Of a DNA stretch of 63,346 bases, positions 34,731-54,958 are shown in pieces. A program made the position numbers and the translations under genes. Positions within the stretch are counted from its first letter, which is position 1. The number at the start of each line of letters is the position of its first letter. The stretch is taken from the NCBI GenBank assembly GCA_964478045.1, contig CAYZHO010000002.1, positions 1 to 63,346 of the forward strand, written 5' to 3'. The notes below the pieces were generated by a model, which was not told the origin of the DNA, ran no database searches, and saw only the letters and a program-made list of their open reading frames with translations. This DNA is from an uncultured Myxococcales bacterium (GTDB lineage Bacteria; Desulfobacterota; Binatia; UBA1149; SPBQ01).

Positions 34731-35227
34731 CCGTACAGCTCGTCGATCGCGTCGCTGATGCGGCGTACCATGTCCCGGAACGACTCGATTTCCTCGGGGC
34801 GAAAACGCTCGAGCAGGCGGCGCAGCCTAGCGATCTGCATCTCCTGAACGTCGCGCACGACTCGCCAACCCTCTCTCGTCAAGTAAAGATGGAAGCTACG
34901 GCGGTCGCTTGGGTCGGGACGTTTCTCGACCCACCCGAGCGAGCACAGCCGGCCGAGCGCCGTGCACGCCGACGGCGTGGTGATCGCCAGGCGGCGCGCG
35001 GCCTCAACGACCGACAGGCCCGGGTTGATTGAGAGCATTTCGAGGAAACGCAGTTGGCTCGGCGTGGCGCCGTAGCGGGTGTCGCTTACGACGTCGGAGA
35101 CGAAGTGCTTGAAGATCGCCGTAAGCAGACCCCCCAGCTCGTGGACGATCGCTAGTTCGACCGGCCCCGGCGAGTGTTCTCCCGGCGCCACGGTGGCGGC
35201 GCCGGGTACGGCTGTCTGGCGCTGCAT
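34727..35227 (-). CDS. MarR-family transcriptional regulator
   Basis: Winged-helix pattern: TPSQLRFLEMLSINPGLSVVEAARRLAITTPSACTALGRLCSLGWVEKRPDPSDRRSFHLYLTREG. Its stop forms an ATGA overlap with the A6 start. Confidence 0.85.
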   Translation of the reverse strand: MQRQTAVPGAATVAPGEHSPGPVELAIVHELGGLLTAIFKHFVSDVVSDTRYGATPSQLRFLEMLSINPGLSVVEAARRLAITTPSACTALGRLCSLGWVEKRPDPSDRRSFHLYLTREGWRVVRDVQEMQIARLRRLLERFRPEEIESFRDMVRRISDAIDELYG

Positions 35228-35285
35228 CCTTTTCCTACCTCGGTTGCAGGCCTCCCCGGCTTCCCGTGTACGCGCCAGTCATTAG

Positions 35286-38289: not shown

Positions 38290-38401
38290 AAGCGAAAGCC
38301 GTCGGCGGGGCGGGCTGAGTCTGCTCGCACGCTCCTGCGCAAGGCTCGCAGGCCTAGCTGTCCGGCAGGTGCCTCGAGCGCGGGGCCACAGCGCTTGCGA
38401 C

Positions 38402-39469
38402 TCAGTCGGGCGGCTCGGCCCTGCCCAGCCACCCCCCGGCATAAAGGAGGAGCGCGGCCACATCACCAACCGGCAAGAGAAGTAAGTCGGAGGGACGCAA
38501 CCCTAGAACGGCTCGGCGCCTCCAGACGAGAAATCCCTGGTAAGCCCACCAGCCGGCGAGCGCCCAAGCCAGCGGCCACCCGTTTTGCCAGACCAGCCAC
38601 AGAAGCGGGGGCAGCCCGTGCGTAACCAAAAGGCCCAGATAGCCCCAAGGGCGCGCGTGGCGAATCACCCTCAGCCAGCGCAGGTGGCGGCGAACCACCC
38701 GGCCGATGGGCTCTTCTCCCAGGTGGTGTTCGAGGACCATGGGAACCCATGCCAGCCGAAATCCCGCGCGCTCGACGTTTCGGGCCAGCGCGTGGTCGTC
38801 CGCCGCTTCGTCGAGCAGTGGCTCGAGCCCACCGGCCGCCTTGAGGGCATCACGCCGCAATGCGATCGTCGCACCGAGCGCAAAATGCAGCCCCTCCAAT
38901 CGAACCGCCAGACAGGTGCTCGGCAAAAACCGAACGTTCGTGAGCAGGGCGTCCACTCGGCTGAGCAGCGAGCGCGCCGCAACGCTCCGGTACGGACAGG
39001 TGCTGAGCCCAACGGACGGATCGGCGAGCGGCGCAACCACCCGAGCAACGTAGTCGCCGGGCACCCGAACGTCGGCGTCGCTCAGCACCAGCACGTCGGC
39101 CGCCGTTCCCGATAGCGCTTGCATCAGATTGGCAATCTTTCGGTTACGACCGGACGGCCCCGGCCCGCAGCGCAGCTCGACGTCGGTGCGCTCTTCGCTG
39201 AGTTGGCGGGCGACCATAATCGCCGGGTCGGCCGGATCCTCGGCCGCCAGGATCACGCGAGCTCGTGCACGCCGGGCGGCTTCCAGGAGGCTTGCAAGAC
39301 ACGGGCGCAGGAATCCCGGAGCTCCGTGAAGCGGGCGCACGAGCAGCACCCGGTCACCGGCCCACCGTCCGGAATTCTCGGCTGGCGAGCCCAGCGTACC
39401 GGTGGCGCGAGTCGCCGCCAGCCAATACAGGGCCGCCGCCGCCAACCACGCCAGGGCAACGACGGTCAC
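38402..39469 (-). CDS. hpnI: Family-2/21 glycosyltransferase, HpnI-like (hopanoid-associated)
   Basis: N-terminal TM helix. GT-A-like core (LLVRPLHG..., NRKIANLMQAL, VLVLSDADVRV). C-terminal TM helices. Ceramide-glucosyltransferase-like architecture, placed immediately after hpnK and hpnJ-like genes. Confidence 0.6.
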   Translation of the reverse strand: MTVVALAWLAAAALYWLAATRATGTLGSPAENSGRWAGDRVLLVRPLHGAPGFLRPCLASLLEAARRARARVILAAEDPADPAIMVARQLSEERTDVELRCGPGPSGRNRKIANLMQALSGTAADVLVLSDADVRVPGDYVARVVAPLADPSVGLSTCPYRSVAARSLLSRVDALLTNVRFLPSTCLAVRLEGLHFALGATIALRRDALKAAGGLEPLLDEAADDHALARNVERAGFRLAWVPMVLEHHLGEEPIGRVVRRHLRWLRVIRHARPWGYLGLLVTHGLPPLLWLVWQNGWPLAWALAGWWAYQGFLVWRRRAVLGLRPSDLLLLPVGDVAALLLYAGGWLGRAEPPD

Positions 39470-40308
39470 CCGGGCACTCCCCCTGGCCGAGGCGCTAGAT
39501 CACGCGTTCCGACCAGTCGGTAGCCGGCCTCGGAAAGGGCCGCGCGCACTCGGGGCGAGCACAGCGCTTCGAGTTCTGCCCGCCCGGCCGCCGTAGCGGT
39601 ATCTGGATGGGTGTAGACCTCGACCGTCGGTGCCCGCAGCCGCCGGATCAGGCGGATCAGCGCCAGCTCGTCGAGCCGGCCGGTGGCCCGCAACCCATAG
39701 ACCCGTTCGGTTGTCGCAATCGCCGAAGACCGATAACGGCGCGCCAGCAGCCAGAAAATGGCGGCCACCACCTCCGCCGCCGGAGTCTCCATGCGAACCC
39801 GGCCGGCCCCGTCTTCGCGAACCAGGCGCACGTGCGGCACGCCGAACTCGCGCATCGCTTCTAGCACCAGCGGGAGCAACACTGGGTGCATGTGCAAGTG
39901 GTGGTGGCCATCTACGTGGTGGATCGCCAGCCCCGCCGCCTTGAGCCGCGCGAACTGCGCCCGCACTTCAGCAGTCAAAGCCGGCGCCAGTCGCCGCCGC
40001 CCCACGTAATAACGGAGGCCCGCAACCAGAGGACTGCGGGGCAACTTGCCACGGCGTGCCAGGCGAGCGGCCGCCGGGTCGGTGGCAGCCGGACGGCCGT
40101 CGCAAAAGACGAGATGCAATCCAGTGGAAAGTTCCGGCAGCCTTCGAGCTCGAGCGACAGCGTCGCCGAATGCCGGACCGGTTACGATCAAGCTCGCGCT
40201 CGTGAGGATGCCTTCCCGGCAGGCGATCTCGACGGCTTCGTTGACGGTTCGGCTCGACCCGAAGTCGTCGGCCGTCACGACGATCTTGCCGCCCACCGCC
40301 TCAAGCAC
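39466..40308 (-). CDS. hpnK: YdjC/ChbG-family deacetylase, HpnK-like
   Basis: N-terminus KIVVTADDFGSSRTVNEAVEIACREGILTSASLIV is typical of YdjC-like deacetylases. HHVDGHHHLHMHP metal-site-like motif. Overlaps both neighbouring genes. Confidence 0.65.
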   Translation of the reverse strand: MLEAVGGKIVVTADDFGSSRTVNEAVEIACREGILTSASLIVTGPAFGDAVARARRLPELSTGLHLVFCDGRPAATDPAAARLARRGKLPRSPLVAGLRYYVGRRRLAPALTAEVRAQFARLKAAGLAIHHVDGHHHLHMHPVLLPLVLEAMREFGVPHVRLVREDGAGRVRMETPAAEVVAAIFWLLARRYRSSAIATTERVYGLRATGRLDELALIRLIRRLRAPTVEVYTHPDTATAAGRAELEALCSPRVRAALSEAGYRLVGTRDLAPRPGGVPG

Positions 40309-41737
40309 GCAGGGCGCGCCGCCGCTGCGCCAGGAACGAGAGAAACTCGACTCCCTCGCGCAGTCGCCGCCGCATGACCCGGCCGTCCCGCACCATGTCG
40401 CGCACGATGCGCAGAATCGGGCGCGGCCGCATGTAGAAGCTCCGGTAGAACCGTTCGAGTGCCTCGTGCATGTCCGCCGCGCTCAGCTCGGGATAGGACA
40501 GTGCCGGCACCTGAACCCCGTGTTCTTCCACCAGTGCACTCGGATCCTTGACGACCAGCCACCCGGCCCGTTCGGCTTCCTCGTACAGTTGGGTGCCCGG
40601 ATACGGCGCCGCCAGCGACACTTGGATGCTGTATGGATCTACCCGCTTGGCGAACTCGATCGTTTCCTCGATCGTCTCGGGCGTTTCTCCGGGCAACCCG
40701 ATCACGAACGTCCCGTGAACCAAGATACCGAGGCGGTGGCAGTCCTCGGCAAATCGCAAGGCTCGGTCGATGCGCGTCCCTTTGCGAATGTTGTTGAGGA
40801 TCTTCTGACTGCCCGTTTCATAGCCGACCAGCAGCAGCCGCAGGCCGTTGTCTTTGAGGACGCGCAGCGTTTCTAGAGGCACGTTGGGTTTGGCGTTGCA
40901 CGACCACACGATCCCGAGCCGTCCCAGCCCTCGGGCAATGGCCTCGGCCCGCGGGCGGTCGTCGGTGAAGGTGTCGTCGTCGAAGAAGAATTCGCGCACC
41001 CCGGGAAACAGCCGCCTGGCCCTTTCCATTTCGGCCAAGACGTTGGCCACCGAGCGCGTGCGGTAGACGTGCCCGCTGATCGTCTGCGGCCACAGACAGA
41101 AGCTGCACCGGCTACGGCAGCCCCGGCCCGTGTACAGCGAAACGTAGGGGTGCTCGAGGTACCCGATCGCGTATTTCGTGATGTCGAGATCGCGCGCGTA
41201 GACGTCGGTTACGAACGGCAGAGCGTCGAGATCTTCAATCGGCGGTCGCGGTCGATTGCGGACGATTCGCCCGTGCTCGTCCCGCCACGCGACTCCGTCC
41301 ACCTGCGCCAGCGGCCGGCCGGCCGCAACTTCCGCCACTGCGTAGTCGAACTCGCCCGTGGTAACGAAGTCCACCGCCTTGGCTACCCTCAGGGTCTCAT
41401 CCGGCAGCACCATCGTATGAGGCCCGACCATACCCACCGTCGCCCGCGGATTGGCCTGGCGCAGGCGCTCGGCGGTACGGGCATCGTGGTAAAGAGAAGG
41501 CGTAGACGTATGGATGACGATCAGTTCGTAGTCGGCAGCAATCCGGGCAACCGCCTCGAGATCGAGGTCGTGCGGTGGAGCATCAACCAGGCGCGAGCCG
41601 GGAACCAACGCCGCGGCCTGCGCCAGCCACGTCGGATACCAGAACGACCGTACTTCCCGGCGTGCCTGGTAGCGCGAGCCAGCCCCACCATCGAAGCCTT
41701 CGTAAGACGGCGGATTCAGGAACAGCGTTTTCTTCAC
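40301..41737 (-). CDS. hpnJ: B12-binding-domain radical SAM enzyme, HpnJ-like
   Basis: The GTG at 41737 (GTGA overlap with the upstream stop) gives VKKTLFLNPPSYEGFDGGAGSRYQARREVRSFWYPTWLAQ, which matches the N-terminus I remember for HpnJ. Radical SAM motif CRSRCSFC. 478 aa. Confidence 0.75.
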   Translation of the reverse strand: MKKTLFLNPPSYEGFDGGAGSRYQARREVRSFWYPTWLAQAAALVPGSRLVDAPPHDLDLEAVARIAADYELIVIHTSTPSLYHDARTAERLRQANPRATVGMVGPHTMVLPDETLRVAKAVDFVTTGEFDYAVAEVAAGRPLAQVDGVAWRDEHGRIVRNRPRPPIEDLDALPFVTDVYARDLDITKYAIGYLEHPYVSLYTGRGCRSRCSFCLWPQTISGHVYRTRSVANVLAEMERARRLFPGVREFFFDDDTFTDDRPRAEAIARGLGRLGIVWSCNAKPNVPLETLRVLKDNGLRLLLVGYETGSQKILNNIRKGTRIDRALRFAEDCHRLGILVHGTFVIGLPGETPETIEETIEFAKRVDPYSIQVSLAAPYPGTQLYEEAERAGWLVVKDPSALVEEHGVQVPALSYPELSAADMHEALERFYRSFYMRPRPILRIVRDMVRDGRVMRRRLREGVEFLSFLAQRRRALRA

Positions 41738-42822
41738 GGCGCACTCCCGCGGCCGCTTCGCCGGCCGGGCAACACGGTGTATTCGACCGCCGGCAGGCAA
41801 GCGCGGCCGTCGACCTCGACGAGCCGCCCCCCGGCCCGCGCCGACTCGTAAGCGGCCTCGATCGTGGCACAGCACGCCGCGGCCTCCCGCTGGTTTTCGA
41901 TCGCTCGATCCGGCTCTTCGAGTGCAGCCAAGAACTCCGCGAGCACCGGTGGAAACCACGCCGCATGGTAGGAGTCGTCGGGCGCGTCGGCCGGCCGCAG
42001 CACCGCCCGAACCGCACCACCTCGATCCCGCACGGCCACCTCTCCATCGCCGATCGTGATCTCCCCGCGTTCTCCCCGCACTAGCACCCGGGTGCGGCGC
42101 CGCTCGGCCGCCCACGTGAGTTCGAGTTGGAGGCGAACCGTGTTGTCGAACTCCACCGTGCACGTGGCTGTATCCTCTACATCTGCCCCCACCCACCGGC
42201 GTCGCTCCGCCTGTGCCGCAACGGTCGCCGGCTGGGCGCCAGCCAAGGAACGGGCCAGATAGAGCGAATGCCAGCCGTGATCGATCAAGATCCCCCCGCC
42301 GGCGCGATCGGCGCGCAGCCGCCACGAATCAGGGCCTCCGGCCGGCTGCGTCCGGTCCGTACGAAACACGATTCGTTCGAGCCGGCCGATCGCGTTCTCG
42401 GCTACCAGCCTGCGCGCTTGGCGGAACAACGGAGCGTGGTGCCAGTTATGGACCGTCATCAGCACGACGCCTGCGCCAGCGGCGCAAGCGGTCATCGAGG
42501 TCAAGTCGGCGCAGCGCAAGGCGAGCGGTTTTTCCACCAGCGCGTGTACCCCTGCTTGCAGGAGGGCTTCGACCACCTCCCGTCGTGTCGCCGGCGGCGT
42601 CGCAATCACCGCAAAATCGGGCCGCTGGCGGGCGAGCAAATCGTCGATGCCCGGGTACACGCCGACCGAACCGCCGAGTAGCGAGCGCGCTCTCTGGCGG
42701 CGCGACCCGTCCGGATCGACTACCGCGCTGACCCGAATGCGCCGGTCGCCGAGCAGCGCCGGAAGATGAGCGAATTCGGCGACTCGCCCGAATCCGACGA
42801 TCGCCGCGTCAAGGGGTTTCAT
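41734..42822 (-). CDS. Gfo/Idh/MocA-family NAD(P)-dependent oxidoreductase
   Basis: N-terminal Rossmann motif AAIVGFGRVAEFAHLPAL, VDPD..., EKPLA. 362 aa. AAGGA RBS. Confidence 0.75.
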   Translation of the reverse strand: MKPLDAAIVGFGRVAEFAHLPALLGDRRIRVSAVVDPDGSRRQRARSLLGGSVGVYPGIDDLLARQRPDFAVIATPPATRREVVEALLQAGVHALVEKPLALRCADLTSMTACAAGAGVVLMTVHNWHHAPLFRQARRLVAENAIGRLERIVFRTDRTQPAGGPDSWRLRADRAGGGILIDHGWHSLYLARSLAGAQPATVAAQAERRRWVGADVEDTATCTVEFDNTVRLQLELTWAAERRRTRVLVRGERGEITIGDGEVAVRDRGGAVRAVLRPADAPDDSYHAAWFPPVLAEFLAALEEPDRAIENQREAAACCATIEAAYESARAGGRLVEVDGRACLPAVEYTVLPGRRSGRGSAP

Positions 42823-42837
42823 CCCGCTAGCGTCCTT

Positions 42838-44166
42838 TCAGCCTCGCCCGTGCGACTCGCGGTAGAGCTCGCCGAGCACGTCTTCGAAGATATCGAGGCC
42901 ACGATTTGCCAGATCTTCTGTAATCACCAGCGGCGGGTTGATCCGTACCCGCGCTCCGTAGGCCATCACCAGCAGCCCCCGCGCCAAACAGCGCCGATAG
43001 AGTTCCTCGGTAACCGCCCGTCCCAGGGGCTCCTTAGAACGCCGGTCGCGCACCAAGTCGAGCCCAATGAGCAACCCGACGCCGCGCACGTCGCCGATCC
43101 ACGGGATCCGCTCGGCCATCTCTTTGAGGCGCGCAAGCATCTTGGCTCCGACGCGCGCGGCATGGTCCGCCAGCCGCTCCTCGACGATCGTTTTCACCGT
43201 CGCCCACGCCGCCGCCGCAGCAAGCGGATTGCCGCCGTAGGAAGAAGAAGACGCGGAGGGCTTGGCCCACGGCAAGGCGCTCGCCGTGTCTTCCCCGGCA
43301 ACCACACCACTGATCGGAAAGCCACCGCCGAATCCCTTCCCGATGGTCATGACATCCGGAACCACACCGCTGTGCTCGAAACCGAACAGCCGGCCTGTGC
43401 GACCGAAGCCGGTGATCATCTCGTCGGCGATCAACAGCGCATCGAACTCGGCGGCAAGCTCGCGAACGCCGGCCATCCATTCCGGTGGCGGAACGACGTT
43501 GCCCGCCGTCCCCTGCATCGGTTCGACCAACACCGCCGCAATCGCCCCCGCGGTGGCCGCATGAACTTGCTGCCGCGCGATGTCGAGACAGCCCAGACCG
43601 CAGCTCGGGTAGCTGGCGTGGAGGGGACAGCGATAGCAGTCGGCGTACGGAACCAGATGGACTCCGCCACCAAGCGGCCCCCAGCCGCGCTTGAACGGGT
43701 CGCCGATCAGCGGGAGAACCCCGCCCGTCTTGCCATGGAAGCCGCCCCAGAACCCAACGACCTCGAACTTGCCGGTTGCCGACCGGGCCAGCCGCAACGC
43801 TGCCTCGACCGCCTCGGCGCCACCCGAGTAAAGTTGCACGCGGCGGAGCCCCTCCGGGAGCACCGAGGCCAAAAGCTCGAGCAGCCGAAGTCGCGCCTCA
43901 CTCGTAAACGACCCTACCGCCAGGCGCTGCGCCTGCTCGGTTACCGCGCGAACCCAGGCGGGATGGCTGTGGCCGATGCTCGCCACGGCAACGCCAGCCA
44001 TGAAGTCGATGTACTTCGAGCCGTCGACGTCCTCGAGCACGGCCCCCTCGCCTCGGGCCATCGCAATGCCGGCCAACGTGGCCAAGCGCTGAATCCCGGG
44101 TGCGATGATTCGCTGTTCGGCCTCGAACAGGGCGCGCGAGCGCGGGCCGGCGATTTCCTCGCTCAC
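42838..44166 (-). CDS. Class III PLP-dependent aminotransferase (acetylornithine/GABA-AT-like; possibly HpnO-like)
   Basis: The GTG at 44166 (GTGA overlap, GGGAGGAAG RBS) gives VSEEIAGPRSRALFEAEQR. Family blocks: DVDGSKYIDFMAG, LIADEMITGFGRTG, MTIGKGFGGGFP (Lys in TIGKG is the likely PLP Lys). Confidence 0.8.
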   Translation of the reverse strand: MSEEIAGPRSRALFEAEQRIIAPGIQRLATLAGIAMARGEGAVLEDVDGSKYIDFMAGVAVASIGHSHPAWVRAVTEQAQRLAVGSFTSEARLRLLELLASVLPEGLRRVQLYSGGAEAVEAALRLARSATGKFEVVGFWGGFHGKTGGVLPLIGDPFKRGWGPLGGGVHLVPYADCYRCPLHASYPSCGLGCLDIARQQVHAATAGAIAAVLVEPMQGTAGNVVPPPEWMAGVRELAAEFDALLIADEMITGFGRTGRLFGFEHSGVVPDVMTIGKGFGGGFPISGVVAGEDTASALPWAKPSASSSSYGGNPLAAAAAWATVKTIVEERLADHAARVGAKMLARLKEMAERIPWIGDVRGVGLLIGLDLVRDRRSKEPLGRAVTEELYRRCLARGLLVMAYGARVRINPPLVITEDLANRGLDIFEDVLGELYRESHGRG

Positions 44167-45005
44167 ATTCTTCCTCCCGCCTGCCGCCAGCGCACGAGCA
44201 GCCGATCGGCGATCGCACGGGCGGCGCCGTCCCGGCACGGCGCGAACGACGGCCAATCGTTGAGGTCGACGAGCACCAGCTCGCCCGACGGAGTCACGAT
44301 CAAGTCTCCTCCGAAGACTTCGAGTCCGAGGGCAGCGGCCGCCTTCTCGGCCAAGCCAGGCCAGCCGTCGGCTTGCGAACCGGAAATGGAGGCCCCGGAC
44401 TCGTCGTAAGCCCGGAAGAAACCCACTCCGCGAACCCCGTAGAACTTGATGGTGGAGCCTTCCACGTGTTCTTCGAGCAGGGCGTGCCGGATACCGCGGC
44501 GGCGAAAACCGGCAAGTACAGCCAGCGCCTCGCCGGGTGTTTCCACGCGGACGACGTCGCCCGGCTCGGTGGCGTGCACGTCGCCCCGCTTGACCCAAAC
44601 CCCCCGGCCGCACGTAGCGAACCAGCGAGCGAGAACCTCGCGGCTCGGCTCCCGCGTGTCGACCGGACGCCTGCGCGCCAGCGCGATACCGGCGCGCTCG
44701 AGTCGCACCGCCGTCTCTATTCGCCGGCAGGCCCTGATCGTGGAAGCGTCGTGGACGACCGGGCGTCCTCGCGCGCCGATCCGGGTTAGTTCGGCCAGAG
44801 CCGCAGGGCCCTGGCACATCGCGAAATATAGCTCGGCACCAACCTCGGCCGCCTCGCGGGCAGCAGTGAACAAGCAAACGCGGACGCCGCGGTCCGCAAG
44901 AGCTGCGGCGGTCGCTTCGAGGATTGCCCGGTCGGCCTCGATCTTTCCGGGGGAATACTCGGGCTCGCGAGCAATGCCGGCAAACAGTGGGGCGGGCGCG
45001 ATCAT
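44163..45005 (-). CDS. ATP-grasp-fold protein (tentative)
   Basis: ATG at 45005 (ATGA overlap). Pattern VWVKRGDVHA, ALLEEHVEGSTIKFYGV, GGDLIVTPSGELVLVDLNDWPSF resembles ATP-grasp C-terminal halves (RimK-like or inositol-phosphate-kinase-like). Assigned by eye only. Confidence 0.4.
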   Translation of the reverse strand: MIAPAPLFAGIAREPEYSPGKIEADRAILEATAAALADRGVRVCLFTAAREAAEVGAELYFAMCQGPAALAELTRIGARGRPVVHDASTIRACRRIETAVRLERAGIALARRRPVDTREPSREVLARWFATCGRGVWVKRGDVHATEPGDVVRVETPGEALAVLAGFRRRGIRHALLEEHVEGSTIKFYGVRGVGFFRAYDESGASISGSQADGWPGLAEKAAAALGLEVFGGDLIVTPSGELVLVDLNDWPSFAPCRDGAARAIADRLLVRWRQAGGRM

Positions 45006-45730
45006 GACGGTGCGCTTTCGGTTGCAATTGCTTCGGCGGTAACGATGTCCGCCGCCCGGTCGACGTCGGCGGCCGGGCCGACGTCGACCGCTCTCAGACG
45101 TATCCCAGTAGCGGGCAGTTGCGCAAGCAAATCGCGGAGGCGGCCGGATGCGGGCTGTGGATGGGCGGCGGCGCGAGCAAGGGCGCACCCGGGCAGGACG
45201 TACAGGCCGGCTGTACAGAGCGGGCTGTGCGCCGCGCCGGACCCGATTGCCTTCACCCAGCCTTTCCGGCCGACGGCCACACGCAGCGGCCGCTCGTCGC
45301 CGGCGGCACTGGTCACCGCAACCAGCCCGTCCGCCCGAGCACCCGGCAAACCGCGCACCTCGGCGGCAAAGCGGCTCAGTCCCGCGCGGCATACGACGCC
45401 GTCGGTCATAGCCAGGGCGAAGGTCCCGCTGCGGCCGCTAGCGAGAAGCCGGCGCCCGACCAGCGCGAACGTCTCCAGACTCGAAGCAGTGGAACACGCG
45501 AGCCATTCGATTGGCCGCGCTGCTCGCAGGCCTTCGATCCGGGCCACGACTTCGCGCGCCATAGCCTCGTTTACGGCGATCAAGAACTGCTCGGCACCGC
45601 AGGCTGCCAGCGAATCGAGCGCGTGGAGCAACAGCGGGCGCCCGCCGACCTCCACTAGGGGCTTTGCCACGGCGACGCCGCTTGCCTTCAGCCGCTCACC
45701 AGCTCCTGCAGCCAGCACGATGCCCACCAT
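45002..45730 (-). CDS. Sugar/alcohol-phosphate nucleotidyltransferase (NTP_transferase fold)
   Basis: The ATG at 45730 gives MVGIVLAAGAGERLK....KPLVEVGGRPLL, the canonical LAAGxGxRL...KPL signature. Confidence 0.75.
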   Translation of the reverse strand: MVGIVLAAGAGERLKASGVAVAKPLVEVGGRPLLLHALDSLAACGAEQFLIAVNEAMAREVVARIEGLRAARPIEWLACSTASSLETFALVGRRLLASGRSGTFALAMTDGVVCRAGLSRFAAEVRGLPGARADGLVAVTSAAGDERPLRVAVGRKGWVKAIGSGAAHSPLCTAGLYVLPGCALARAAAHPQPASGRLRDLLAQLPATGIRLRAVDVGPAADVDRAADIVTAEAIATESAPS

Positions 45731-46497
45731 CACTGTGCTGCGGCCTCCGGGTCGAGCGCGGCCACGGAAGAAACCCAAGCATCCACGCCCGCACTCCAAT
45801 CGGAAGGCGGCTGCGGAGAAACCAAGATCGCCGCAACGCCCGCACTGCGAGCCGCCGCCACGTCGCGATCGATGCGGTCACCCACCGCCGCCAGCGAGCC
45901 AGGCATGCAAGCGAATGCTCGCAGGACCGGGGCGAAGACTTTCCCGTCCGGCTTCCAGACACCGGCTTCCGTGGAATCGACAACCACCTCGAAGAAGTCC
46001 GCCAGCCCGTGTTCCGCCAGCAAGACTCTGGTATTGCCGCATCCGTTCGACACTACGGCCAGGCGCACGCACTCGGCCAGGCGGGCAAGCAGCGACCGGC
46101 GCGATTCGAGCGCACCTTTGGCATCCAGCCAAAACTTCTCTGCAACGGCGTGCGCCGACTGCGAGTCGGCCCCGAGAACCCGCGCCTGCGCGCGGACGTG
46201 CGCTTCCACCATGTCAGCAAGCCTCAGTTGGCGAGCCCGCGGATGTTCGAGAACTGCCCTGTCGCCACAATCGATGGCCGCGTCGATGCGCTCTTGCGGC
46301 ACGCCGGGCTCACGCGCCCGCCATAGTGAACGAAAGCGGTCGCGCCAGGACAAGCCATCGGCATCAAGGGTGCCACCGAAGTCGAAGGCCAGTCCTACGA
46401 TCGATCGGCCGGGGGCTCCCACGTGCAACGACCCGCGGCCGTCCCACTCCAGACCCAAGGCGCCGGCTCCCCGCGGGCCGTTATCGACCGAGGGCAT
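45730..46497 (-). CDS. HAD-superfamily hydrolase with an atypical motif I
   Basis: Motif I reads FDFGGTLD, so the second Asp of DxDxT is replaced by Gly. Motif II VVSNG. Motif IV GDRIDRDV. The start was chosen at ATG 46497. The listed longer ORF overlaps the upstream gene. Confidence 0.6.
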   Translation of the reverse strand: MPSVDNGPRGAGALGLEWDGRGSLHVGAPGRSIVGLAFDFGGTLDADGLSWRDRFRSLWRAREPGVPQERIDAAIDCGDRAVLEHPRARQLRLADMVEAHVRAQARVLGADSQSAHAVAEKFWLDAKGALESRRSLLARLAECVRLAVVSNGCGNTRVLLAEHGLADFFEVVVDSTEAGVWKPDGKVFAPVLRAFACMPGSLAAVGDRIDRDVAAARSAGVAAILVSPQPPSDWSAGVDAWVSSVAALDPEAAAQ

Positions 46498-47632
46498 CGC
46501 GATCACCTGCGGGCTCGGAACTCGCGAGCCACTGCCTGGCCAACTGCTCGGAGAAGAAGAACCGCAAGACCAACAGCGCGGCGGCAAACGCAAACGTTCC
46601 CGGGGCCGCCAGCCAGACAAACCAGTGCAGCCGGTCTATCAAAGAAAGCACGAGAATCAGATACACGAAGTCCCGGCTGCTCGCCCGCTCGTACAACGCG
46701 CGCGCACGATCCCCTACCCCAGCCCGCTCGAGCCATCTCGCAAACCACAGTCCCACACTCGCAGCGACCGCCATCCCGGCCAGCGCCGTCCACGCCACCC
46801 AAGCCGGCGCCTTGCCCGCACGCACGGCCCCGACCCCGAGCGCTGCGAAGACGGCAGCGTTGACGGCGTTGTCTCCAAGCAGATCGAGGCGGCGGCCGCT
46901 CGGGGACGCAGTAAGCGTAAGGCGTGCGACCTCACCGTCGCAACCGTCCAAGATCGTCGAAAGAACCACGAGCGCCGCGCCAACGACCGACCTGCTCGTC
47001 CCCGGTGAGGCGAGCCAAACCGCCCCCCAGAGTCCGATCGCTGTTGCAGCCATCGTGATCGCATTCGGGGAAACCCCCCAGCGAACCAGCCACGGCGAGA
47101 TTCGAGTCGATATCGAGCGGTCGAAGTAGCGCGCCAGCAATCCGTCGGTGTCTTGCCACATCGTAGCGAGCAGCCGCGCACTCGCCTCCCGTGCTTCCCT
47201 GGCACTGCGCACGCGCATGCAAAACTCGCCGGCTGGCCACCAGCGCGCGACTCCGCTTTCGAGAAGCTGCCGGGCCAGCTCGCCTAGTTCGTCCGCATCG
47301 CGCGGCCGGCAGTCGACGTCTGGCGGCAGTGCCACGGCTACCGCCGGCCGCTCCGGCGAAGAGCCGGCAACCACCACATTGGCCTGCGCTTCCCGGCACA
47401 GACTCAACAACGTCTCTTCGCCTATAACGGCGTCGCCCGCGACGAAGACTCGTCCTGCCGGCTGGCCGCCCGTCCGCTCCTCGAGGCGCCGGTTAGCCAA
47501 GTTTACGGCGCGGGCTAGGCGCTCGCCCACCGGCATCCCAGCCACCCGGTGGCCCTGCTCGCCGGCAGCCGGGACGACGACAATCGGCCCGTTGGGCGGC
47601 CGACCGTTTGAGCGCCCTTCCACCGCCTTCAC
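46481..47632 (-). CDS. Fusion of a degenerate nucleotidyltransferase-like N-domain with a CDP-alcohol phosphatidyltransferase
   Basis: Complete D1xxD2GxxAR-x8-GxxxD3xxxD4 motif (LDGCDGEVAR LTLTASPS GRRLDLLGD). Multiple TM helices. The N-terminal ~190 aa resemble an NTP-transferase fold but lack the GxGxR signature. GTG start in a GTGA overlap. Confidence 0.75.
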   Translation of the reverse strand: MKAVEGRSNGRPPNGPIVVVPAAGEQGHRVAGMPVGERLARAVNLANRRLEERTGGQPAGRVFVAGDAVIGEETLLSLCREAQANVVVAGSSPERPAVAVALPPDVDCRPRDADELGELARQLLESGVARWWPAGEFCMRVRSAREAREASARLLATMWQDTDGLLARYFDRSISTRISPWLVRWGVSPNAITMAATAIGLWGAVWLASPGTSRSVVGAALVVLSTILDGCDGEVARLTLTASPSGRRLDLLGDNAVNAAVFAALGVGAVRAGKAPAWVAWTALAGMAVAASVGLWFARWLERAGVGDRARALYERASSRDFVYLILVLSLIDRLHWFVWLAAPGTFAFAAALLVLRFFFSEQLARQWLASSEPAGDRDALGR

Positions 47633-48606
47633 CGCCTAGCCCGAATCGCCGCAGTGCGGCCGGCAATCAAAAATGGAAAGAGCAGCATACCGAGGCCCGC
47701 GTAAAAGATTTGTTCAATTCGAAGGACGACGCCGTAGGACAGGCCCGCCGATTGCGGGAGGCCGAGCAACGCGAACACCAGCATGCGACCTCCCTCTTGT
47801 GCGCCAACCCCGGCAGGCACTGCAAACGCGGCGATGTCGATCAGCGTTCCGATCATCCAAATCGCGGCAGCAAACAACCACGACGCCCGGCCGACGACCC
47901 ACCACAGGAACAGCCACGTCGCTCCGATTCCGACCGCGAGTCCGGCCACGTGCCACAAAATCGAAGCAACCAGCGCCCAGGGATGCTCCCGATAGTAGGC
48001 GCGCAGGTCTTCATCGACGTCACCTGCGACTTTGAGTGCCCGCTCTCCCAATCGCCGGCCGAGCACCCGCCGCACGAGCCAGCCCATACGACCGGTGAGC
48101 TGAAACCAGAAGAAACCGAAACAACCGATCCCCACGGCCGCGCCGGTTACGAACAACGCGCTGGCAAGCCTTCGATCGAGCGGGATCCACCAGGCGAGTA
48201 CCGCGGTCCCCAACCCGGCTAGGCCCAGTTGGGCCGCCACGTACGAAAGCTTGTCCACCATCACCCCGGCAGCCGCGGCCGAACGTGGAATCCATCGCTC
48301 GAGCAGTGCGACTTTGGCAACCTCGCCCCCGATCGAGGCCGTCGGCGTCAAGTAGTTGACCGCCGTCCCGGCGTTGCGCACTCCCCACAGAGCGGCAAGC
48401 GGTACCGTACGGCGGCCGCGCGCGAACGCCAGCCGCATCCCGAACGAGTGGAAAACGTCGGCCACCGCCTCGAGCGCGACGAACAGGGCCAATCCCCAGC
48501 CGAAGCGTTCGACGTCGGCCCACAGTCGTGCGGGACCGGTCCGGGCCACCAGGTACGCCAACAACAACAGCCCGGCGCCGAAGAGGATTGCGTGCACCCT
48601 TTTCAT
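47629..48606 (-). CDS. Polytopic membrane protein, LPG-synthase-TM / flippase-like (UPF0104-like)
   Basis: About 8 hydrophobic helices. The N-terminus KRVHAILFGAGLLLLAYLV and overall pattern resemble the flippase-like domain family. 4-nt overlaps at both ends. Confidence 0.5.
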   Translation of the reverse strand: MKRVHAILFGAGLLLLAYLVARTGPARLWADVERFGWGLALFVALEAVADVFHSFGMRLAFARGRRTVPLAALWGVRNAGTAVNYLTPTASIGGEVAKVALLERWIPRSAAAAGVMVDKLSYVAAQLGLAGLGTAVLAWWIPLDRRLASALFVTGAAVGIGCFGFFWFQLTGRMGWLVRRVLGRRLGERALKVAGDVDEDLRAYYREHPWALVASILWHVAGLAVGIGATWLFLWWVVGRASWLFAAAIWMIGTLIDIAAFAVPAGVGAQEGGRMLVFALLGLPQSAGLSYGVVLRIEQIFYAGLGMLLFPFLIAGRTAAIRARR

Positions 48607-49859
48607 CGATCACCATTGGCCGCCGGCGCTTGCCTGCCCGGCCTTCGGCCCGCGGCTGCCAGCGAAGCTCGGTGCCGAGCAGCCCACAGTAGTCGCGCGC
48701 TGTGGACTACCCCCGTGCACACGGCCCACGCTCCTGCCGCCACGAACCCCTCGTACAGCCGGCCTGCAACGGCGCACAGGAGCAGCATGGCAACATAGAT
48801 ATTTCGCCGTCCCGCGATCAACCGAAAGTGCTCGTCGAAGCGGCCGAGCAGGTCGAGGGGGCAGCCCAGCCACCGGTGGCCGAGCGTGTAGGCGATTTCG
48901 TCGGCCAGATTTCCGCCCAACAGTAAGCCGCCCCACAACAGGGCAGCCGCGCCCTTGGTGCCGTAAAACCACCAGGTCAAAGCGAACCACCAGGCGTTCT
49001 CATAGAGAAAGTCGAAATAAGACTCCCACTCGCCCAGCGCCGAGTATTCCAGGCGCAGCCGGGCCAGCTTCCCGTCGACACCGTCGAGCCACTCGACCAA
49101 GTACATCAGCGGGAAAGCGGCCACGAAGGCTCCCTTGGCCAGTAGGACGGCGGCAAGCAATCCGATCCCCGTGCACGCGAAAGTCACCTGGTTCGGAGTG
49201 ACGCGGGTTGGGGCGAGCCATGCGAGCAAGACGTTTTCGAACGGAGGATCGAGCCAACGAGCCGGCGCGTCCATGACGTGTTTTTGAGTCGCCCGAATCA
49301 GGGCTCTGCCGAGCTCCGCCGCACTGCGCGCACCGGACACGCGGTGCAGGAAGATCGGCACCGGACCGCGCATTTCTTCGGAAAAGGTGTCCAGCGAGCG
49401 GGGATCGATCCGCTCGATCTCGGCATCGCCCGCGGAGCCTCCCGCGAGAATTCCAAGGCGCTCCGGCGGCAATAGCCCAACCGCGATCTCCTGGCTTCCT
49501 TCGGCCGTCGGCTGCACAATGGCCGGCCGGCCGCGCGCCAGCAGCAGCTCGATGATGCGCCGGTCTACGACGAAATCGGCTGCCGCGAACAAGCAATAGC
49601 CGGTCAAGCCAAGATCCGGCTCGACCAGCTCGCCGAGCGGTACCGCCCCGCTGGCCTGCAGCACCCGCAGTTTCGTTCGCCGGTCGCGGGCACCGAAATC
49701 CTCTGGAGCGCACGGGCGCTCGACCACTACGACGATATCGTGCACCCCTTCGAGCTCGAAAAGACGCACGAGCCGAGTGACGCAGGGAATACCACCCACT
49801 CGCATCCAGGCCCCACCGCGCCGTGCATCGAGCAACCCGGTTACGCCGCTTGCCGCCAC
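48603..49859 (-). CDS. Second nucleotidyltransferase-like / CDP-alcohol phosphatidyltransferase fusion, with a deviant catalytic motif
   Basis: The first half of the motif is intact (LDGVDGKLAR). The second half reads GEWESYFDF, so D3 and D4 are not at canonical spacing. TM-rich C-terminus. The start is uncertain (GTG 49859 or ATG 49805). Confidence 0.65.
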   Translation of the reverse strand: MAASGVTGLLDARRGGAWMRVGGIPCVTRLVRLFELEGVHDIVVVVERPCAPEDFGARDRRTKLRVLQASGAVPLGELVEPDLGLTGYCLFAAADFVVDRRIIELLLARGRPAIVQPTAEGSQEIAVGLLPPERLGILAGGSAGDAEIERIDPRSLDTFSEEMRGPVPIFLHRVSGARSAAELGRALIRATQKHVMDAPARWLDPPFENVLLAWLAPTRVTPNQVTFACTGIGLLAAVLLAKGAFVAAFPLMYLVEWLDGVDGKLARLRLEYSALGEWESYFDFLYENAWWFALTWWFYGTKGAAALLWGGLLLGGNLADEIAYTLGHRWLGCPLDLLGRFDEHFRLIAGRRNIYVAMLLLCAVAGRLYEGFVAAGAWAVCTGVVHSARLLWAARHRASLAAAGRRPGRQAPAANGDR

Positions 49860-49875
49860 CGCCGGTCTCGCTTGC

Positions 49876-51069
49876 CTACTCGACCCGCAGGGCCTCCACC
49901 AGGTTGAGCTGGGAGGCTCGGCGGGCGGGGTAGAACCCGAAGAACACGCCGACCGCCATCGAGACCCCGGCCGCCACTACCACGCTCGCCGCCGACACCG
50001 GGACTTCGACCCCGTAGAGCATCCCGACGTACCAGGGAAGTCCCACACCGAGCGCGATCCCAGCCGCTCCGCCGCCCGCCGCCAGGATCGCCGCCTCGAG
50101 CAGAAACTGAGCCAGAATGTCGCGCCGGCGCGCTCCTATTGCCATGCGGATGCCGATTTCACGGGTGCGCTCGGCCACCGTAACGAACATGATGTTCATG
50201 ATGCCAATCCCACCGACCAACAACGAAACCGCCGCGATGACGACCAAGCCCAAGGTGATCGCGTCCGAAATCCGCCGCACCAACGCCAAGTAACGCTCGA
50301 GCGACTCGACTTTGAAACTGTCGATGCGCTCGTGCCGCTGGGCCAGCACCCGGCGAATCGACCGAACGACACCGGGCACCTGCTCGGCACTTGCCGCCTG
50401 AAAGTATACGACGTCGACCCACTGCAGCCCGGACAGATTGCGTTCGGTCGAAAACGGAACGATTGCAGTCAGTCCCGCCGCCTCGCTTTTGTGTACGGCC
50501 GCGGCGCTTTCCACCGCTTCTCGGAACACGCCCACGACCCGAAACCGCACGTCGTAGAGGCGGATCCACGCGTCTTCGAGCCGCCCTCCAGGTAGCAACT
50601 CCTCCGCAAGCTCGCGCGAGACGACCGCCACTTTTGCCGCTCGTTCTTCTTCGGCCTGCGTCAGGAAGCGGCCCCGCTCGATGATTAGGTTTCGAACCCG
50701 CGCGTAAGAGGGCGGCGCGCCGAGCACCGTAATCACGCGAGGCCGCCCGCGAAGCGACACGGTCTGGCTGTCGTTGAGAACCGGCGCCACGGCTACGACG
50801 CCGCGCACGGAGGTGGCCAGGGCACGTGCATCTTCAAAGGTCAGCTCTTGGGGGTTTAGGCCATCGCCGGTTCCATACGCGAAGACAAGATTGGCCCCCA
50901 CGCCCTCGATCTGCCGGATCACGTACGCCCGACCGACCAGACCGATCGACACTACGGCGACGACGCTCGCCGTGCCGATGGCGATTCCGAGCATCGTCAG
51001 AGCCGAACGGCCTTTTTGTGCCGCCAGTCCGTCGGCCGCAAAGCGCAGGAGCAGTTCAAGCCAGGCCAT
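49876..51069 (-). CDS. ABC transporter permease, FtsX/MacB-type
   Basis: N-terminal TM helix, a large periplasmic domain, then three C-terminal TM helices. Start LRFAADGLAAQKGRSALTMLGIAIGTASVV is typical of MacB/LolC-type permeases. Confidence 0.8.
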   Translation of the reverse strand: MAWLELLLRFAADGLAAQKGRSALTMLGIAIGTASVVAVVSIGLVGRAYVIRQIEGVGANLVFAYGTGDGLNPQELTFEDARALATSVRGVVAVAPVLNDSQTVSLRGRPRVITVLGAPPSYARVRNLIIERGRFLTQAEEERAAKVAVVSRELAEELLPGGRLEDAWIRLYDVRFRVVGVFREAVESAAAVHKSEAAGLTAIVPFSTERNLSGLQWVDVVYFQAASAEQVPGVVRSIRRVLAQRHERIDSFKVESLERYLALVRRISDAITLGLVVIAAVSLLVGGIGIMNIMFVTVAERTREIGIRMAIGARRRDILAQFLLEAAILAAGGGAAGIALGVGLPWYVGMLYGVEVPVSAASVVVAAGVSMAVGVFFGFYPARRASQLNLVEALRVE

Positions 51070-51754
51070 CGTGAATCCGCCCGTCGCGCACCCGGACGAT
51101 GCGCTCTCCGGCCGCTGCGACTTCCGGGTCGTGGGTGACCAAGACGATGGTCGCGCCGCGCCGGTGCAAGTCGCGAAACACCTCGAGAATCTCGCGGGCC
51201 GTGGCGGAGTCGAGCGCGCCGGTGGGCTCGTCGGCGAGCAGAACCGAAGGATCGTTGATGAGCGCCCGTGCGATCGCCGCTCGCTGGCGCTGGCCCACCG
51301 ACAGCTCGGCAGGGCGATGATCGAGCCGGTCCCCGAGCCCGAGCTGCTCGAGACGCTCGCGCGCGGCGCGCCGGCACTCGGCCGGAGACCGGTCGCGCGC
51401 GTACAAAGCCGGCAGCGCTACGTTGTCGAGCACGCTCAGTTGGCCGAGCAAATGAAAAGACTGGAACACGAAACCGACCTCGCGGTTTCGCAAGCGGGCG
51501 AGCTCGTCGCTCGAGGCCCTGGAAACCACGCGCCCGTCGAACCGATAGGTACCTTCATAGTCGGCGTCGAGGAACCCGAGGATGTGCAGGAGTGTCGATT
51601 TGCCCGAGCCCGATGGACCCATGATGACGACGAACTCCCCGCGCCGGACCTCGAGCGTAACCGCGCGCAGCGCGACCACCGGGACACCTTCGCGATCGTA
51701 AACCTTGGAAACCGAATCGAGGCGGATCACGGACCCTTTGGGCCGAGCGCTCAC
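51056..51754 (-). CDS. ABC transporter ATP-binding protein (MacB/LolD-type)
   Basis: GTG at 51754 (GTGA overlap with the adaptor stop). Walker A GPSGSGKST, signature LSVGQRQR, Walker B LLADEPTGALD. Confidence 0.9.
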   Translation of the reverse strand: MSARPKGSVIRLDSVSKVYDREGVPVVALRAVTLEVRRGEFVVIMGPSGSGKSTLLHILGFLDADYEGTYRFDGRVVSRASSDELARLRNREVGFVFQSFHLLGQLSVLDNVALPALYARDRSPAECRRAARERLEQLGLGDRLDHRPAELSVGQRQRAAIARALINDPSVLLADEPTGALDSATAREILEVFRDLHRRGATIVLVTHDPEVAAAGERIVRVRDGRIHDGLA

Positions 51755-54289: not shown

Positions 54290-54355
54290 CGAAATGCCGG
54301 CCTCAAGGCCGAACCCAAAAAGTGTATCGCGGGCCAGACCGAAGCGCGACCCGGG

Positions 54356-54892: not shown

Positions 54893-54958
54893 GCCGGGAG
54901 GTCGTCGATGGTGCCACTGGCAGGGAGGCGAAAAAGCCGGGGGACGTAACGTTCGGGC

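Follow-up and report, generated by a model that had tools for sequence, protein, structure and literature searches.

The subject of this analysis is a compact array of minus-strand genes in a 63,346-bp contig of an uncultured Myxococcales bacterium (CAYZHO010000002.1; G+C content of ~65%; the whole contig is hereafter called the window). As judged from the sequence, this array appears to join the long form of a proposed CDP-inositol lipid pathway to bona fide hpnJKI hopanoid side-chain genes and to a tripartite exporter, an arrangement that is apparently undescribed. The reading that we favor, with a probability of about one in two, is one of joined parallel modules, in which two head-group pathways and an exporter would be co-expressed and their products made and exported together as one envelope-remodeling program. 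In this reading, module A is the exporter (U1 to U4, positions 54289 to 49876), module B comprises genes G1 to G8 and would be a widespread inositol head-group cassette in its long form, and module C comprises the hopanoid genes G9 to G11 (Table 1).

Positions 38402 to 49859 hold eleven ORFs (G1 to G11), every one of them on the minus strand. Gene starts were chosen by ribosome-binding sites, domain boundaries, and homologue N-termini. Six junctions are 4-nt overlaps of the ATGA or GTGA type (G1/G2, G2/G3, G5/G6, G6/G7, G8/G9, and G10/G11), and the remaining overlaps measure 17 nt (G3/G4, with G4 starting at ATG 46497), 1 nt (G4/G5, with G5 starting at ATG 45730), and 8 nt (G9/G10), the sole spacer among these junctions being the 15 nt between G7 and G8. 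The operon given in a preliminary description of this DNA (its order, strand, six 4-nt overlaps, and 15-nt spacer) matches these junctions exactly, and the families it had assigned to all eleven genes were confirmed by Pfam and NCBIfam scans and by structure matches. The array reaches further upstream than position 49859, with the MacB-like permease gene U1 stopping 16 nt before G1, and the compact unit is probably ~15 genes long (38402 to 54289), extending upstream to a MacAB-TolC-like exporter. Since the identical 11-gene order, including the 4-nt overlap between the Gfo/Idh/MocA (GFO) and hpnJ genes, is kept in a related locus of a metagenome-assembled genome (MAG), L010 (contig CAZJCO010000006.1), the arrangement is no accident of assembly (L numbers denote loci of other genomes). 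Scans of positions 37500 to 57400 returned 0 consensus promoters (1.3 expected from shuffled controls) and 18 terminator-like sites (15.9 in shuffled controls), with no signal above controls, and are therefore uninformative on transcript boundaries.

Table 1. Genes of the array and other annotated genes of the window (positions in the 63,346-bp contig)
Feature	Position	Strand	Assignment	Supporting match or remark
U4	52877..54289	-	TolC-like outer-membrane channel	Pfam OEP; TIGR01844 94.8 bits, under cutoff
U3	51751..52923	-	Periplasmic membrane-fusion (adaptor) protein	TIGR01730 RND_mfp; Pfam HlyD_3, HlyD_D23
U2	51056..51754	-	ABC ATPase, MacB/LolD type	Pfam ABC_tran; MacB N-terminal region 230 bits
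U1	49876..51069	-	MacB-like permease	MacB_PCD and FtsX; overlaps U2 by 14 nt
G1	48603..49859	-	NT-like domain and divergent CDP-alcohol phosphotransferase (transferase 2)	CDP-OH_P_transf 22.9 bits
G2	47629..48606	-	Flippase-like membrane protein, HpnL-like	LPG_synthase_TM PF03706 80 bits
G3	46481..47632	-	Degenerate NT-like domain and canonical CDP-alcohol phosphotransferase (transferase 1, DIPPS-like)	
G4	45730..46497	-	HAD-family phosphatase	Pfam Hydrolase, HAD_2, Hydrolase_like
G5	45002..45730	-	Stand-alone IPCT-like nucleotidyltransferase	NTP_transf_3, NTP_transferase
G6	44163..45005	-	Orphan ATP-grasp enzyme	AlphaFold fold, pLDDT 94; NCBI locus tag D6815_00965
G7	42838..44166	-	Class III (omega-type) aminotransferase	Aminotran_3 320 bits; GabT-like PDB matches ~1e-70
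G8	41734..42822	-	Gfo/Idh/MocA sugar or cyclitol dehydrogenase	Three GFO_IDH_MocA Pfam domains
G9	40301..41737	-	HpnJ, B12-binding radical SAM enzyme	TIGR03471; start GTG 41737, overlaps G8 stop by 4 nt
G10	39466..40308	-	HpnK, YdjC-type deacetylase	YdjC 196 bits
G11	38402..39469	-	HpnI, GT21/GT2 glycosyltransferase	Glyco_transf_21 132.6 bits; adjoins HpnK, HpnJ
Alpha subunit	9062-12256	-	Molybdoenzyme alpha subunit	
Alpha subunit	11941-14796	-	Molybdoenzyme alpha subunit	
Alpha subunit	23574-26603	-	Molybdoenzyme alpha subunit	
Alpha subunit	26465-29416	-	Molybdoenzyme alpha subunit	
Alpha subunit	31695-34826	-	Molybdoenzyme alpha subunit	
Alpha subunit	35455-38289	+	Molybdoenzyme alpha subunit	
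Beta subunit	14837-15994	-	Fer4_11 beta subunit	
Beta subunit	29343-30407	-	Fer4_11 beta subunit	
Gamma subunit	30425-31183	-	EB_dh gamma subunit	
Chaperone	20045-20992	-	NarJ-like chaperone	
Regulator	34727-35278	-	MarR regulator	

Comparison across genomes indicates that G1 to G8 are a separable, independent cassette that mostly occurs without nearby hpn genes. The ATP-grasp protein G6 has 1,450 detectable homologues, and two peptide patterns taken from their alignment revealed at least 596 species-level loci that carry this family (one genome per species). The window proteins, together with the proteins of a Melioribacter locus, were compared with 80 of these loci. This analysis uncovered that the HAD, nucleotidyltransferase, ATP-grasp, class III aminotransferase, and Gfo/Idh/MocA proteins co-occur in most of the 80, usually accompanied by an LPG_synthase_TM protein and a CDP-alcohol transferase; G4 is kept in nearly every cassette locus, and on complete contigs the flippase-like protein is usually found. 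Among the carriers are Myxococcota/Binatia-type 'delta' MAGs, Ignavibacteriota (among them the cultured Melioribacter sp. OK-6-Me, L040), Bacteroidota, Acidobacteriota, Elusimicrobiota, Methylomirabilota, Verrucomicrobiota, and Planctomycetota (L093), and most of the cassette loci examined have no hpn gene within 10 kb. The eight upstream genes are thus better viewed as an independent cassette than as a hopanoid-specific add-on; this cassette occurs in at least 596 species, in most cases away from hpn genes and often with inositol-1-phosphate synthase (MIPS), and what had been described as a fusion of hpnIJK to a head-group pathway would rather be two modules joined in this lineage.

Eleven loci keep the ATP-grasp gene without the aminotransferase and dehydrogenase genes (L025, L031, L035, L036, L044, L058, L062, L070, L073, L085, and L088). 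They belong to Ignavibacteriota/Chlorobiota-type, Bacteroidales-type, and Syntrophorhabdales genomes and to one 'delta proteobacterium' MAG, and this short form runs in the order nucleotidyltransferase, ATP-grasp, CDP-alcohol transferase, flippase-like, HAD, and MIPS. Given the joint absence of G7 and G8 from these loci, the dehydrogenase and aminotransferase form an optional pair, as would be expected for oxidation followed by transamination, and the retention of the ATP-grasp gene places it in the core of the cassette. For the same reason, we rejected the idea that G6 simply acylates an amine made by G7. In addition, the nucleotidyltransferase and ATP-grasp proteins are encoded as one 495-aa ORF in a Planctomycetes MAG (L093, 4477 to 5964), in which residues 5 to 233 are 34% identical to G5 (E = 3e-29) and residues 233 to 495 are 41% identical to G6 (E = 4e-49). 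Another apparent fusion, judged solely by the absence of an in-frame stop, occurs in a Verrucomicrobiae MAG (L056, ~9338 to 10765). The window genes G5 and G6 have the same order as the fusion and share an ATGA overlap. The fusion suggests that the two proteins catalyze consecutive steps. The Melioribacter locus also contains a tandem duplicate of the ATP-grasp gene (L040, 9989 to 11645), the second copy of which (10821 to 11645) has no Pfam match and retrieves the same targets.

G6 itself matched no Pfam or NCBIfam family. Its family has two invariant motifs, W-x-KRGDVHA and D-x-NDWPS, and D247-x-N249, likewise invariant, corresponds to the acidic-x-Asn Mg/ATP motif of the ATP-grasp superfamily. 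We attempted to place G6 in a known ATP-grasp family and failed, the scan of 25 members giving marginal matches split among ATPgrasp_ST, Ins134_P3_kin, and TTL. The evidence on its activity is also split, with the fold search pointing to amide ligases and the sequence profile to ITPK-type kinases. The nearest folds are LysX, ArgX, Ddl, and RimK (TM scores of 0.64 to 0.76; E of ~1e-13), and ITPK structures are absent from the top 50 fold matches. The family profile matches ITPK1 and ITPK4 structures weakly and over the last 45 to 66 residues only (E = 1.3e-4 to 1.6e-3), and 9 of the 25 members match PF05770, also weakly (best E = 0.0034). The motif D-x-N-x-x-P-[SG]-[FY] of G6 is one that we take to be common to ITPK1-type kinases and unlike the E-x-N of ligases. 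We only slightly favor a role for G6 as a kinase that readies the cyclitol for cytidylylation; such an activity would explain why a phosphatase and a kinase both lie beside MIPS, as the two together could shift which hydroxyl bears the phosphate.

The two CDP-alcohol transferases each carry an NT-like domain, as had been claimed in the preliminary description. We searched for the PF01066 signature D(x)2DG(x)2AR...G(x)3D(x)3D, and G3 bears it in full (DGCDGEVAR...GRRLDLLGD; DGx2AR...Gx3Dx3D). Its best PDB match is the IPCT/DIPPS of A. fulgidus (4mnd, E = 5e-15), with which its sequence aligns from the linker through the transmembrane domain, and the next is AF2299. The AlphaFold model of G1 (pLDDT of 90.9) aligns over both domains with 4mnd (427 columns, E = 2e-9, TM score of 0.61) and with AF2299 (TM scores of 0.62/0.73). 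G1 differs in its motif, DGVDGKLAR...GEWESYFD, in which Gx2Ex3D replaces the canonical Gx3Dx3D. Since the variant DGxDGx2AR-x8-Gx2Ex3Dx3E is invariant in 26 members of the G1 family, it argues for a conserved, though possibly altered, activity. The start that we assign to G1, GTG 49859, gives it the conserved N-terminus 'LLDAR..AW', a segment that the NCBI start at ATG 49805 removes. The public annotation (P0241, 400 aa) begins at ATG 49805; homologues keep an N-terminal 'LIDAR..AW', which in G1 requires a start at GTG 49859 or TTG 49835, and the deposited start is probably too short.

Both transferases resemble IPCT/DIPPS (4mnd) and AF2299 (4o6m) in combining a cytosolic NT-like domain with a six-helix CDP-alcohol transferase, by fold in the case of G1 and by sequence in that of G3. 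However, they lie far below the cutoff of 580 bits for the IPCT/DIPPS equivalog NF041135 (71.4 bits for G3 and 37.5 bits for G1), their NT-like domains have a degenerate appearance, and the array encodes a separate nucleotidyltransferase; G1 shows its variant motif, and the genomic context points to a lipid. The separate nucleotidyltransferase, G5, aligns with positions 2 to 214 of NF041135, the IPCT half, at 35 bits and presumably makes the CDP-alcohol. As G1, G3, and G5 are all under the cutoff, they are relatives of IPCT/DIPPS and not members. The flippase-like protein G2 is under the HpnL cutoff (TIGR03476, 126.2 vs. 195.65 bits). This model gives the hpn-operon copies 102.7 (L091) and 99.9 bits (L006) and the cassette copy of L006 111 bits, and this overlap means that the HpnL model cannot separate cassette copies from hpn-operon copies. 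Placing G2 as either type by identity likewise failed, since it is equidistant from the two L006 copies (33% identical to the cassette copy and 31% to the hpn-operon copy).

The dehydrogenase and aminotransferase suggest that the cyclitol is aminated. G8 weakly matches inositol 2-dehydrogenase (TIGR04380, 74 bits) and scyllo-inositol dehydrogenase structures, and G7 starts at GTG 44166, preceded by the ribosome-binding site GGGAGGAAG. Inosamines of the hygromycin A, rhizopine, and aminoglycoside pathways are formed by MIPS, a phosphatase, an inositol dehydrogenase, and an aminotransferase. The cassette is comparable in placing a phosphatase, a Gfo/Idh/MocA dehydrogenase, and an aminotransferase alongside inositol-phosphate metabolism, with the latter two enzymes covarying. 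It differs in that its aminotransferase is of class III (GabT-like), whereas those of aminocyclitol pathways are usually of the DegT/StsC type, and in that its product would be CDP-activated and attached to a lipid rather than to an antibiotic scaffold.

The link to inositol comes from MIPS and from the likeness of G3, G1, and G5 to IPCT/DIPPS. A MIPS gene lies inside the Melioribacter cassette (L040; NAD_binding_5, 350 bits). Most complete Ignavibacteriota and Bacteroidota loci likewise have one in or next to the cassette, as do L004/L005/L011 (one contig), L015, L058, L063, L073, L075, and L086. Lipid-transport genes recur in the same neighborhoods. The Melioribacter cassette is flanked by MlaE/MlaF/MlaD, PagL-like, and Omp85-like genes, the corresponding neighbor in the window's clade is the MacAB-TolC-type exporter, and RND/MMPL transporters adjoin cassette genes in L063 (14325 to 17066) and L092 (4937 to 7648), where their best match is the model of the hopanoid transporter HpnN (515 and 550 bits; cutoff of 751.85) and their second-best is the sterol transporter BstA. 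Of the cassette, L092 holds only the two CDP-alcohol transferase genes and the flippase-like gene, plus a gene for an AurF-like di-iron protein.

A core set of NTP transferase, CDP-alcohol transferase, and HAD genes near MIPS, with an LPG-synthase homologue, has been described as a 'putative alternative inositol lipid cluster' (Heaver et al. 2022, PMC9246714). Bacteroides vulgatus and Prevotella have this alternative cluster and make inositol lipids without the canonical pathway, for which a Kennedy-like route via CDP-inositol was proposed and is unconfirmed (PMC9246714). The window resembles this cluster in the adjacency of G5, G3 (and G1), and G4 and in the LPG-synthase-type G2, a likeness to the B. 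vulgatus-like cluster that rests on related Bacteroidales MAG loci and not on the B. vulgatus locus itself. In contrast to the published cluster, the window encodes two transferases that both bear an NT-like domain at the N-terminus; it adds the ATP-grasp, class III aminotransferase, and Gfo/Idh/MocA genes, none of which is mentioned in PMC9246714; and it lacks MIPS and links the cassette to an exporter and hopanoid genes. Our literature search on inosamine or amino-inositol lipids, Melioribacter/Ignavibacterium polar lipids, and the extended gene set found nothing relevant, and a search for follow-up of the alternative inositol cluster returned only the original paper and one lipidomics study.

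Given the flippase-like protein, the varied lipid transporters, and the inositol-lipid producers that carry the core set (Heaver et al. 2022), the product of the cassette is more likely a lipid than a solute, and the cassette is a probable source of a membrane-lipid head group that derives from inositol and is likely aminated. We regard as quite unlikely the alternative that module B makes a soluble compatible solute, namely a di-myo-inositol-phosphate-like osmolyte or an aminated relative, in which case the nucleotidyltransferase would supply CDP-inositol to a DIPPS-like transferase and the HAD phosphatase would follow, the proximity to lipid genes being coincidental or regulatory. The nucleotidyltransferase, DIPPS-like transferase, phosphatase, and, in related loci, MIPS do constitute the enzyme set for di-myo-inositol phosphate, the closest solved relative of G3 is an IPCT/DIPPS, and some JGI relatives of G1 are annotated as IPCT/DIPPS. 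However, the low NF041135 scores of G3 and G1 (71 and 37.5 bits against 580) speak against this alternative, as do the presence of a flippase-like protein in most loci and of Mla, MMPL, MacAB-TolC, PagL, or Omp85 genes adjoining the cassette in several phyla. Di-myo-inositol phosphate is a solute of thermophiles, and many carriers of the cassette are MAGs of lineages not known as thermophiles. Moreover, Bacteroides and Prevotella strains limited to the core set produce inositol lipids (PMC9246714).

Genes G9 to G11 most likely encode enzymes that convert bacteriohopanetetrol (BHT) to its glucosamine and cyclitol-ether forms. The route by which HpnI, HpnK, and HpnJ lead from BHT to BHT-glucosamine and then to BHT-cyclitol ether is established in Burkholderia. 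G9 passes the HpnJ equivalog TIGR03471 (740.7 vs. 577.6 bits, over model positions 1 to 471 of 472), combines a B12-binding domain (PF02310, 33.9 bits) with a following radical SAM domain (PF04055, 85.2 bits), and is 70 to 77% identical to many HpnJ proteins of Binatia, Myxococcota, and 'Deltaproteobacteria' MAGs. The preliminary description had called the three genes HpnIJK-like, and against the TIGRFAM models only HpnJ clears its threshold: G11 falls under the HpnI cutoff of TIGR03472 (248.5 vs. 310 bits, E = 9e-74, over model positions 5 to 350 of 373), and G10 scores 232.5 bits with TIGR03473, a hypothetical equivalog, 0.1 bit under the cutoff of 232.6.

A relative on a 3.2-Mb contig (L091) helps to interpret these scores. 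Its HpnJ is 71% identical to G9, its genes run hpnM (208.9 bits, above cutoff), hpnL-like, DUF455-like, hpnJ, hpnK, and hpnI, and 6 to 9 kb away from the trio lie hpnH (403 bits, above cutoff), dxs, the squalene-hopene cyclase gene shc (SQHop_cyclase), and a squalene-synthase-type gene. The proteins of this shc-linked locus score 243.8 (HpnI), 225.5 (HpnK), and 102.7 bits (HpnL-like), none of them above the window values, and those of L006 score 237.7 (HpnI) and 255.7 bits (HpnK). Since a trio in an shc locus scores no better than that of the window, the low HpnI and HpnK scores reflect divergence of the clade from the model seeds rather than a change of function, and since the HpnI proteins of the window, L091, and L006 are all under 310 bits, the TIGR03472 cutoff excludes the whole clade. 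The hopanoid type that had been proposed for the trio therefore most likely holds, with HpnJ above its cutoff and HpnI and HpnK matching an shc-linked relative.

Compared with canonical loci for the HpnI-HpnK-HpnJ route, the window has the same three families adjacent to each other, with relatives (50 to 71% identical) in an hpnM-hpnL-hpnJKI/hpnH-dxs-shc locus. It differs in that the trio lacks its own hpnL or DUF455-like partner and is translationally coupled to the Gfo/Idh/MocA gene of another pathway, and in that HpnI and HpnK lie below or at the cutoffs and shc and hpnH were not found among the window ORFs scanned. The DUF455-like protein (~270 residues) is encoded between the hpnL-like gene and hpnJ in L006 to L009 and L091. 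It has a faint DUF455 match (none in L008) and no NCBIfam match, is absent from the window trio, and may represent an undescribed hopanoid-associated gene.

Consistent with what the preliminary description had stated for squalene-hopene cyclase, hpnH, and hpnG, none of shc, hpnH, hpnG, and hpnN was found among the window ORFs scanned with Pfam and NCBIfam, which left out a few ORFs such as that at 20746 to 24390. This finding, together with an HpnI under its curated cutoff, could fit the alternative raised in that description, in which the trio was recruited to a non-hopanoid lipid: in an organism that lacks squalene-hopene cyclase, the aminocyclitol would be built on a ceramide, a diacylglycerol, a sterol, or the lipid of module B. 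By its Pfam name, GT21 is the family of ceramide glucosyltransferase as well, and sterol pathways have been reported in some bacteria labeled Dadabacteria (PMC8237579). Nevertheless, we consider this alternative very improbable. G9 exceeds the HpnJ equivalog cutoff by 163 bits, and of the Binatia and Myxococcota HpnJ proteins that are 70 to 77% identical to it, one (71%, L091) is encoded in the shc locus described above. Among 5,568 species surveyed, HpnG, HpnI, and HpnJ domains were confined to genomes with both SHC and HpnH (PMC12324291). In addition, 63 kb is a small share of a genome, so a window without shc says little.

Next to these two pathways lies the exporter of module A, whose genes overlap one another by 4 to ~47 nt. 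U4 starts at ATG 54289, followed by an N-terminus resembling a signal peptide, and is probably the first gene of the array. U3 scores above the cutoff of TIGR01730 RND_mfp (156 vs. 94.9 bits); its start is approximate (ATG 52923 or GTG 52896), and both candidates overlap U4. U2 starts at GTG 51754 and overlaps the U3 stop by 4 nt. Orthologues of the permease (MacB, 63 to 67% identical) and the ATPase (67 to 71% identical) flank the cassette in L004 to L009, L013, and L015, where U4 orthologues adjoin it too, and in a Binatia genome (L090) the orthologous exporter stands directly 3' of hpnJ, with the U4 orthologue adjoining it. At this L090 locus (10001 to 16033; GCA_050184825.1), hpnJ occurs without hpnK or hpnI and is followed by TolC, MFP, ABC, and MacB genes; an Mla-type transporter and a DUF748/YhdP-like giant protein precede it. 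The exporter resembles MacAB-TolC and DevBCA-TolC systems in that a single block of overlapping genes specifies a MacB_PCD/FtsX permease, an ABC ATPase, a HlyD-type adaptor, and an OEP channel, and differs from them in adjoining the inositol cassette in some genomes and directly following hpnJ in another. DevBCA exports heterocyst glycolipids.

In the window's closest clade (G6 50 to 56% identical), three arrangements place hpnJKI less than 10 kb from the cassette: co-directional and overlapping, in the window and L010; convergent, as hpnL-like, DUF455-like, hpnJ, hpnK, and hpnI, in L006 to L009; and upstream of the exporter, in L013. We rejected L010 as an independent origin of the joined array. 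Its downstream molybdoenzyme is 72% identical to that of the window and occupies the same position, and this shared flanking synteny indicates an arrangement that was inherited and conserved. No hpn genes are found within 10 kb of the cassette, which includes G1, in the clade members L004/L005 and L015 and in the Binatia-type L001 to L003, L022, and L052. The repeated proximity of hpnJKI to the cassette is unlikely by chance, given that these are single-copy genes in multi-Mb genomes, and thus points to a functional tie; the hopanoid and inositol-lipid pathways are probably expressed together.

A closer form of this tie is conceivable, in which a CDP-alcohol transferase, most plausibly G1, puts a phospho-(amino)cyclitol on a hydroxyl of BHT, its glucosamine, or its cyclitol ether. 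The result would be a bacteriohopanepolyol with a second, phosphodiester-linked (amino)inositol head group, which G2 would flip and the MacAB-TolC-like system would export to the outer membrane. The translationally coupled GFO/HpnJ junction kept in L010 and the three arrangements speak for such a composite lipid, as do the HpnN/BstA-like MMPL transporters beside cassette genes in L063 and L092 and the occurrence of the same exporter after hpnJ in L090. Furthermore, the window has only one flippase-like gene, compared with two in L006, and its product, being equidistant from the L006 copies, could serve both modules. G1-type transferases were detected only in HpnJ-bearing lineages (Myxococcota/Binatia-type and Planctomycetes), but this correlation is confounded by phylogeny. 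We consider the composite lipid unlikely, because, at the level of loci, Ignavibacteriota and Bacteroidota often carry the cassette with no hpn genes in sight, and because the genomes listed above carry the cassette with G1 away from hpn genes. Literature searches turned up no phosphodiester-linked bacteriohopanepolyol, and we know of none.

Under the parallel-module reading that we prefer, we infer the following steps for module B. Inositol phosphate would come from a MIPS encoded elsewhere in the genome and would lose its phosphate to the HAD phosphatase G4. The Gfo/Idh/MocA dehydrogenase G8 would then oxidize the cyclitol, and the class III aminotransferase G7 would aminate it to an inosamine-type aminocyclitol, which the ATP-grasp protein G6, if a kinase, would re-phosphorylate. 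The nucleotidyltransferase G5 would activate this product as a CDP-alcohol, G3 (with the canonical motif) and G1 (with the variant motif) would transfer the head group to one or more lipid acceptors, and the flippase-like G2 would move the product across the inner membrane, from where module A would take it outward. In module C, HpnI would add GlcNAc to BHT, HpnK would deacetylate it, and HpnJ would contract the ring to give the aminocyclitol ether. Both head groups would thus be amino-cyclitols, a six-carbon inosamine phosphate in module B and a five-carbon aminocyclitol ether in module C.

Several observations weigh against this proposal. No MIPS-like sequence was detected in the window (best tblastn E of 0.7), nor, among the scanned ORFs of this 63-kb contig, were shc, hpnH, and hpnG. 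The NT-like domains of G1 and G3 show, on reading their sequences, no obvious GxGxR nucleotide-binding loop, and IPCT/DIPPS, the closest solved relative of both, makes a soluble osmolyte and no lipid. The fold of G6 is closest to amide ligases, its view as a kinase depending on weak ITPK1-type matches and the D-x-N motif. The order of steps is our own assignment, and the substrate of oxidation and amination could be the phosphate, the CDP-alcohol, or the finished lipid. Because L010 shares flanking synteny with the window, it does not supply an independent origin of the arrangement, and co-location would fit two separate lipids or one composite lipid alike. Finally, no product has been observed for any cassette, in its long or its short form.

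In the rest of the window, positions 9062 to 38289 hold six paralogous alpha subunits of the type II DMSO-reductase family (ethylbenzene-dehydrogenase-like), an unusual concentration of molybdoenzymes, together with the associated subunits, chaperone, and regulator listed in Table 1. A 1,215-codon stop-to-stop ORF on the minus strand (20746 to 24390) overlaps the start of the molybdoenzyme at 23574 to 26603 and may represent a seventh large gene or simply result from the high G+C content. In the first 9,042 positions, multihaem cytochromes (Paired_CXXCH_1, MtrC/MtrF-like) are interleaved with NHL-repeat beta-propellers and an AhpC/TPR protein, and this block (1 to 9042) may be an extracellular electron-transfer module beside the molybdoenzymes. 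On the other side of the array, a 2,320-residue ORF of the toxin-complex/RHS type (56383 to 63345, minus strand), with SpvB, TcdB middle/N-terminal, FG-GAP, and RHS repeats, runs off the window. Between this ORF and the exporter, the same strand carries two ORFs without family matches (54356 to 54958 and 54959 to 56866), and an APH-type kinase was found among the window ORFs scanned.

Inositol lipids were considered rare in bacteria. Our data indicate that the alternative CDP-inositol gene set is far wider than reported, occurring in at least 596 species and well beyond host-associated Bacteroidetes, and that it has a core gene overlooked until now, its ATP-grasp member. The set exists in a short form and a long form, of which the latter, with its dehydrogenase/aminotransferase pair, predicts an aminated cyclitol head group, and envelope lipid transporters recur beside it, joined in one clade by hopanoid side-chain genes. 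If this reading is true, the long-form cassette makes inosamine-phosphate lipids in hundreds of species of many phyla, which would amount to a new bacterial polar head group. It would also give lipid chemists defined targets, namely phosphoinositol head groups shifted in mass by about -0.98 Da and phosphorus-bearing hopanoids, and the long form is present in a cultured genus, Melioribacter. The result also matters for the interpretation of sedimentary bacteriohopanepolyol and polar-lipid biomarkers.

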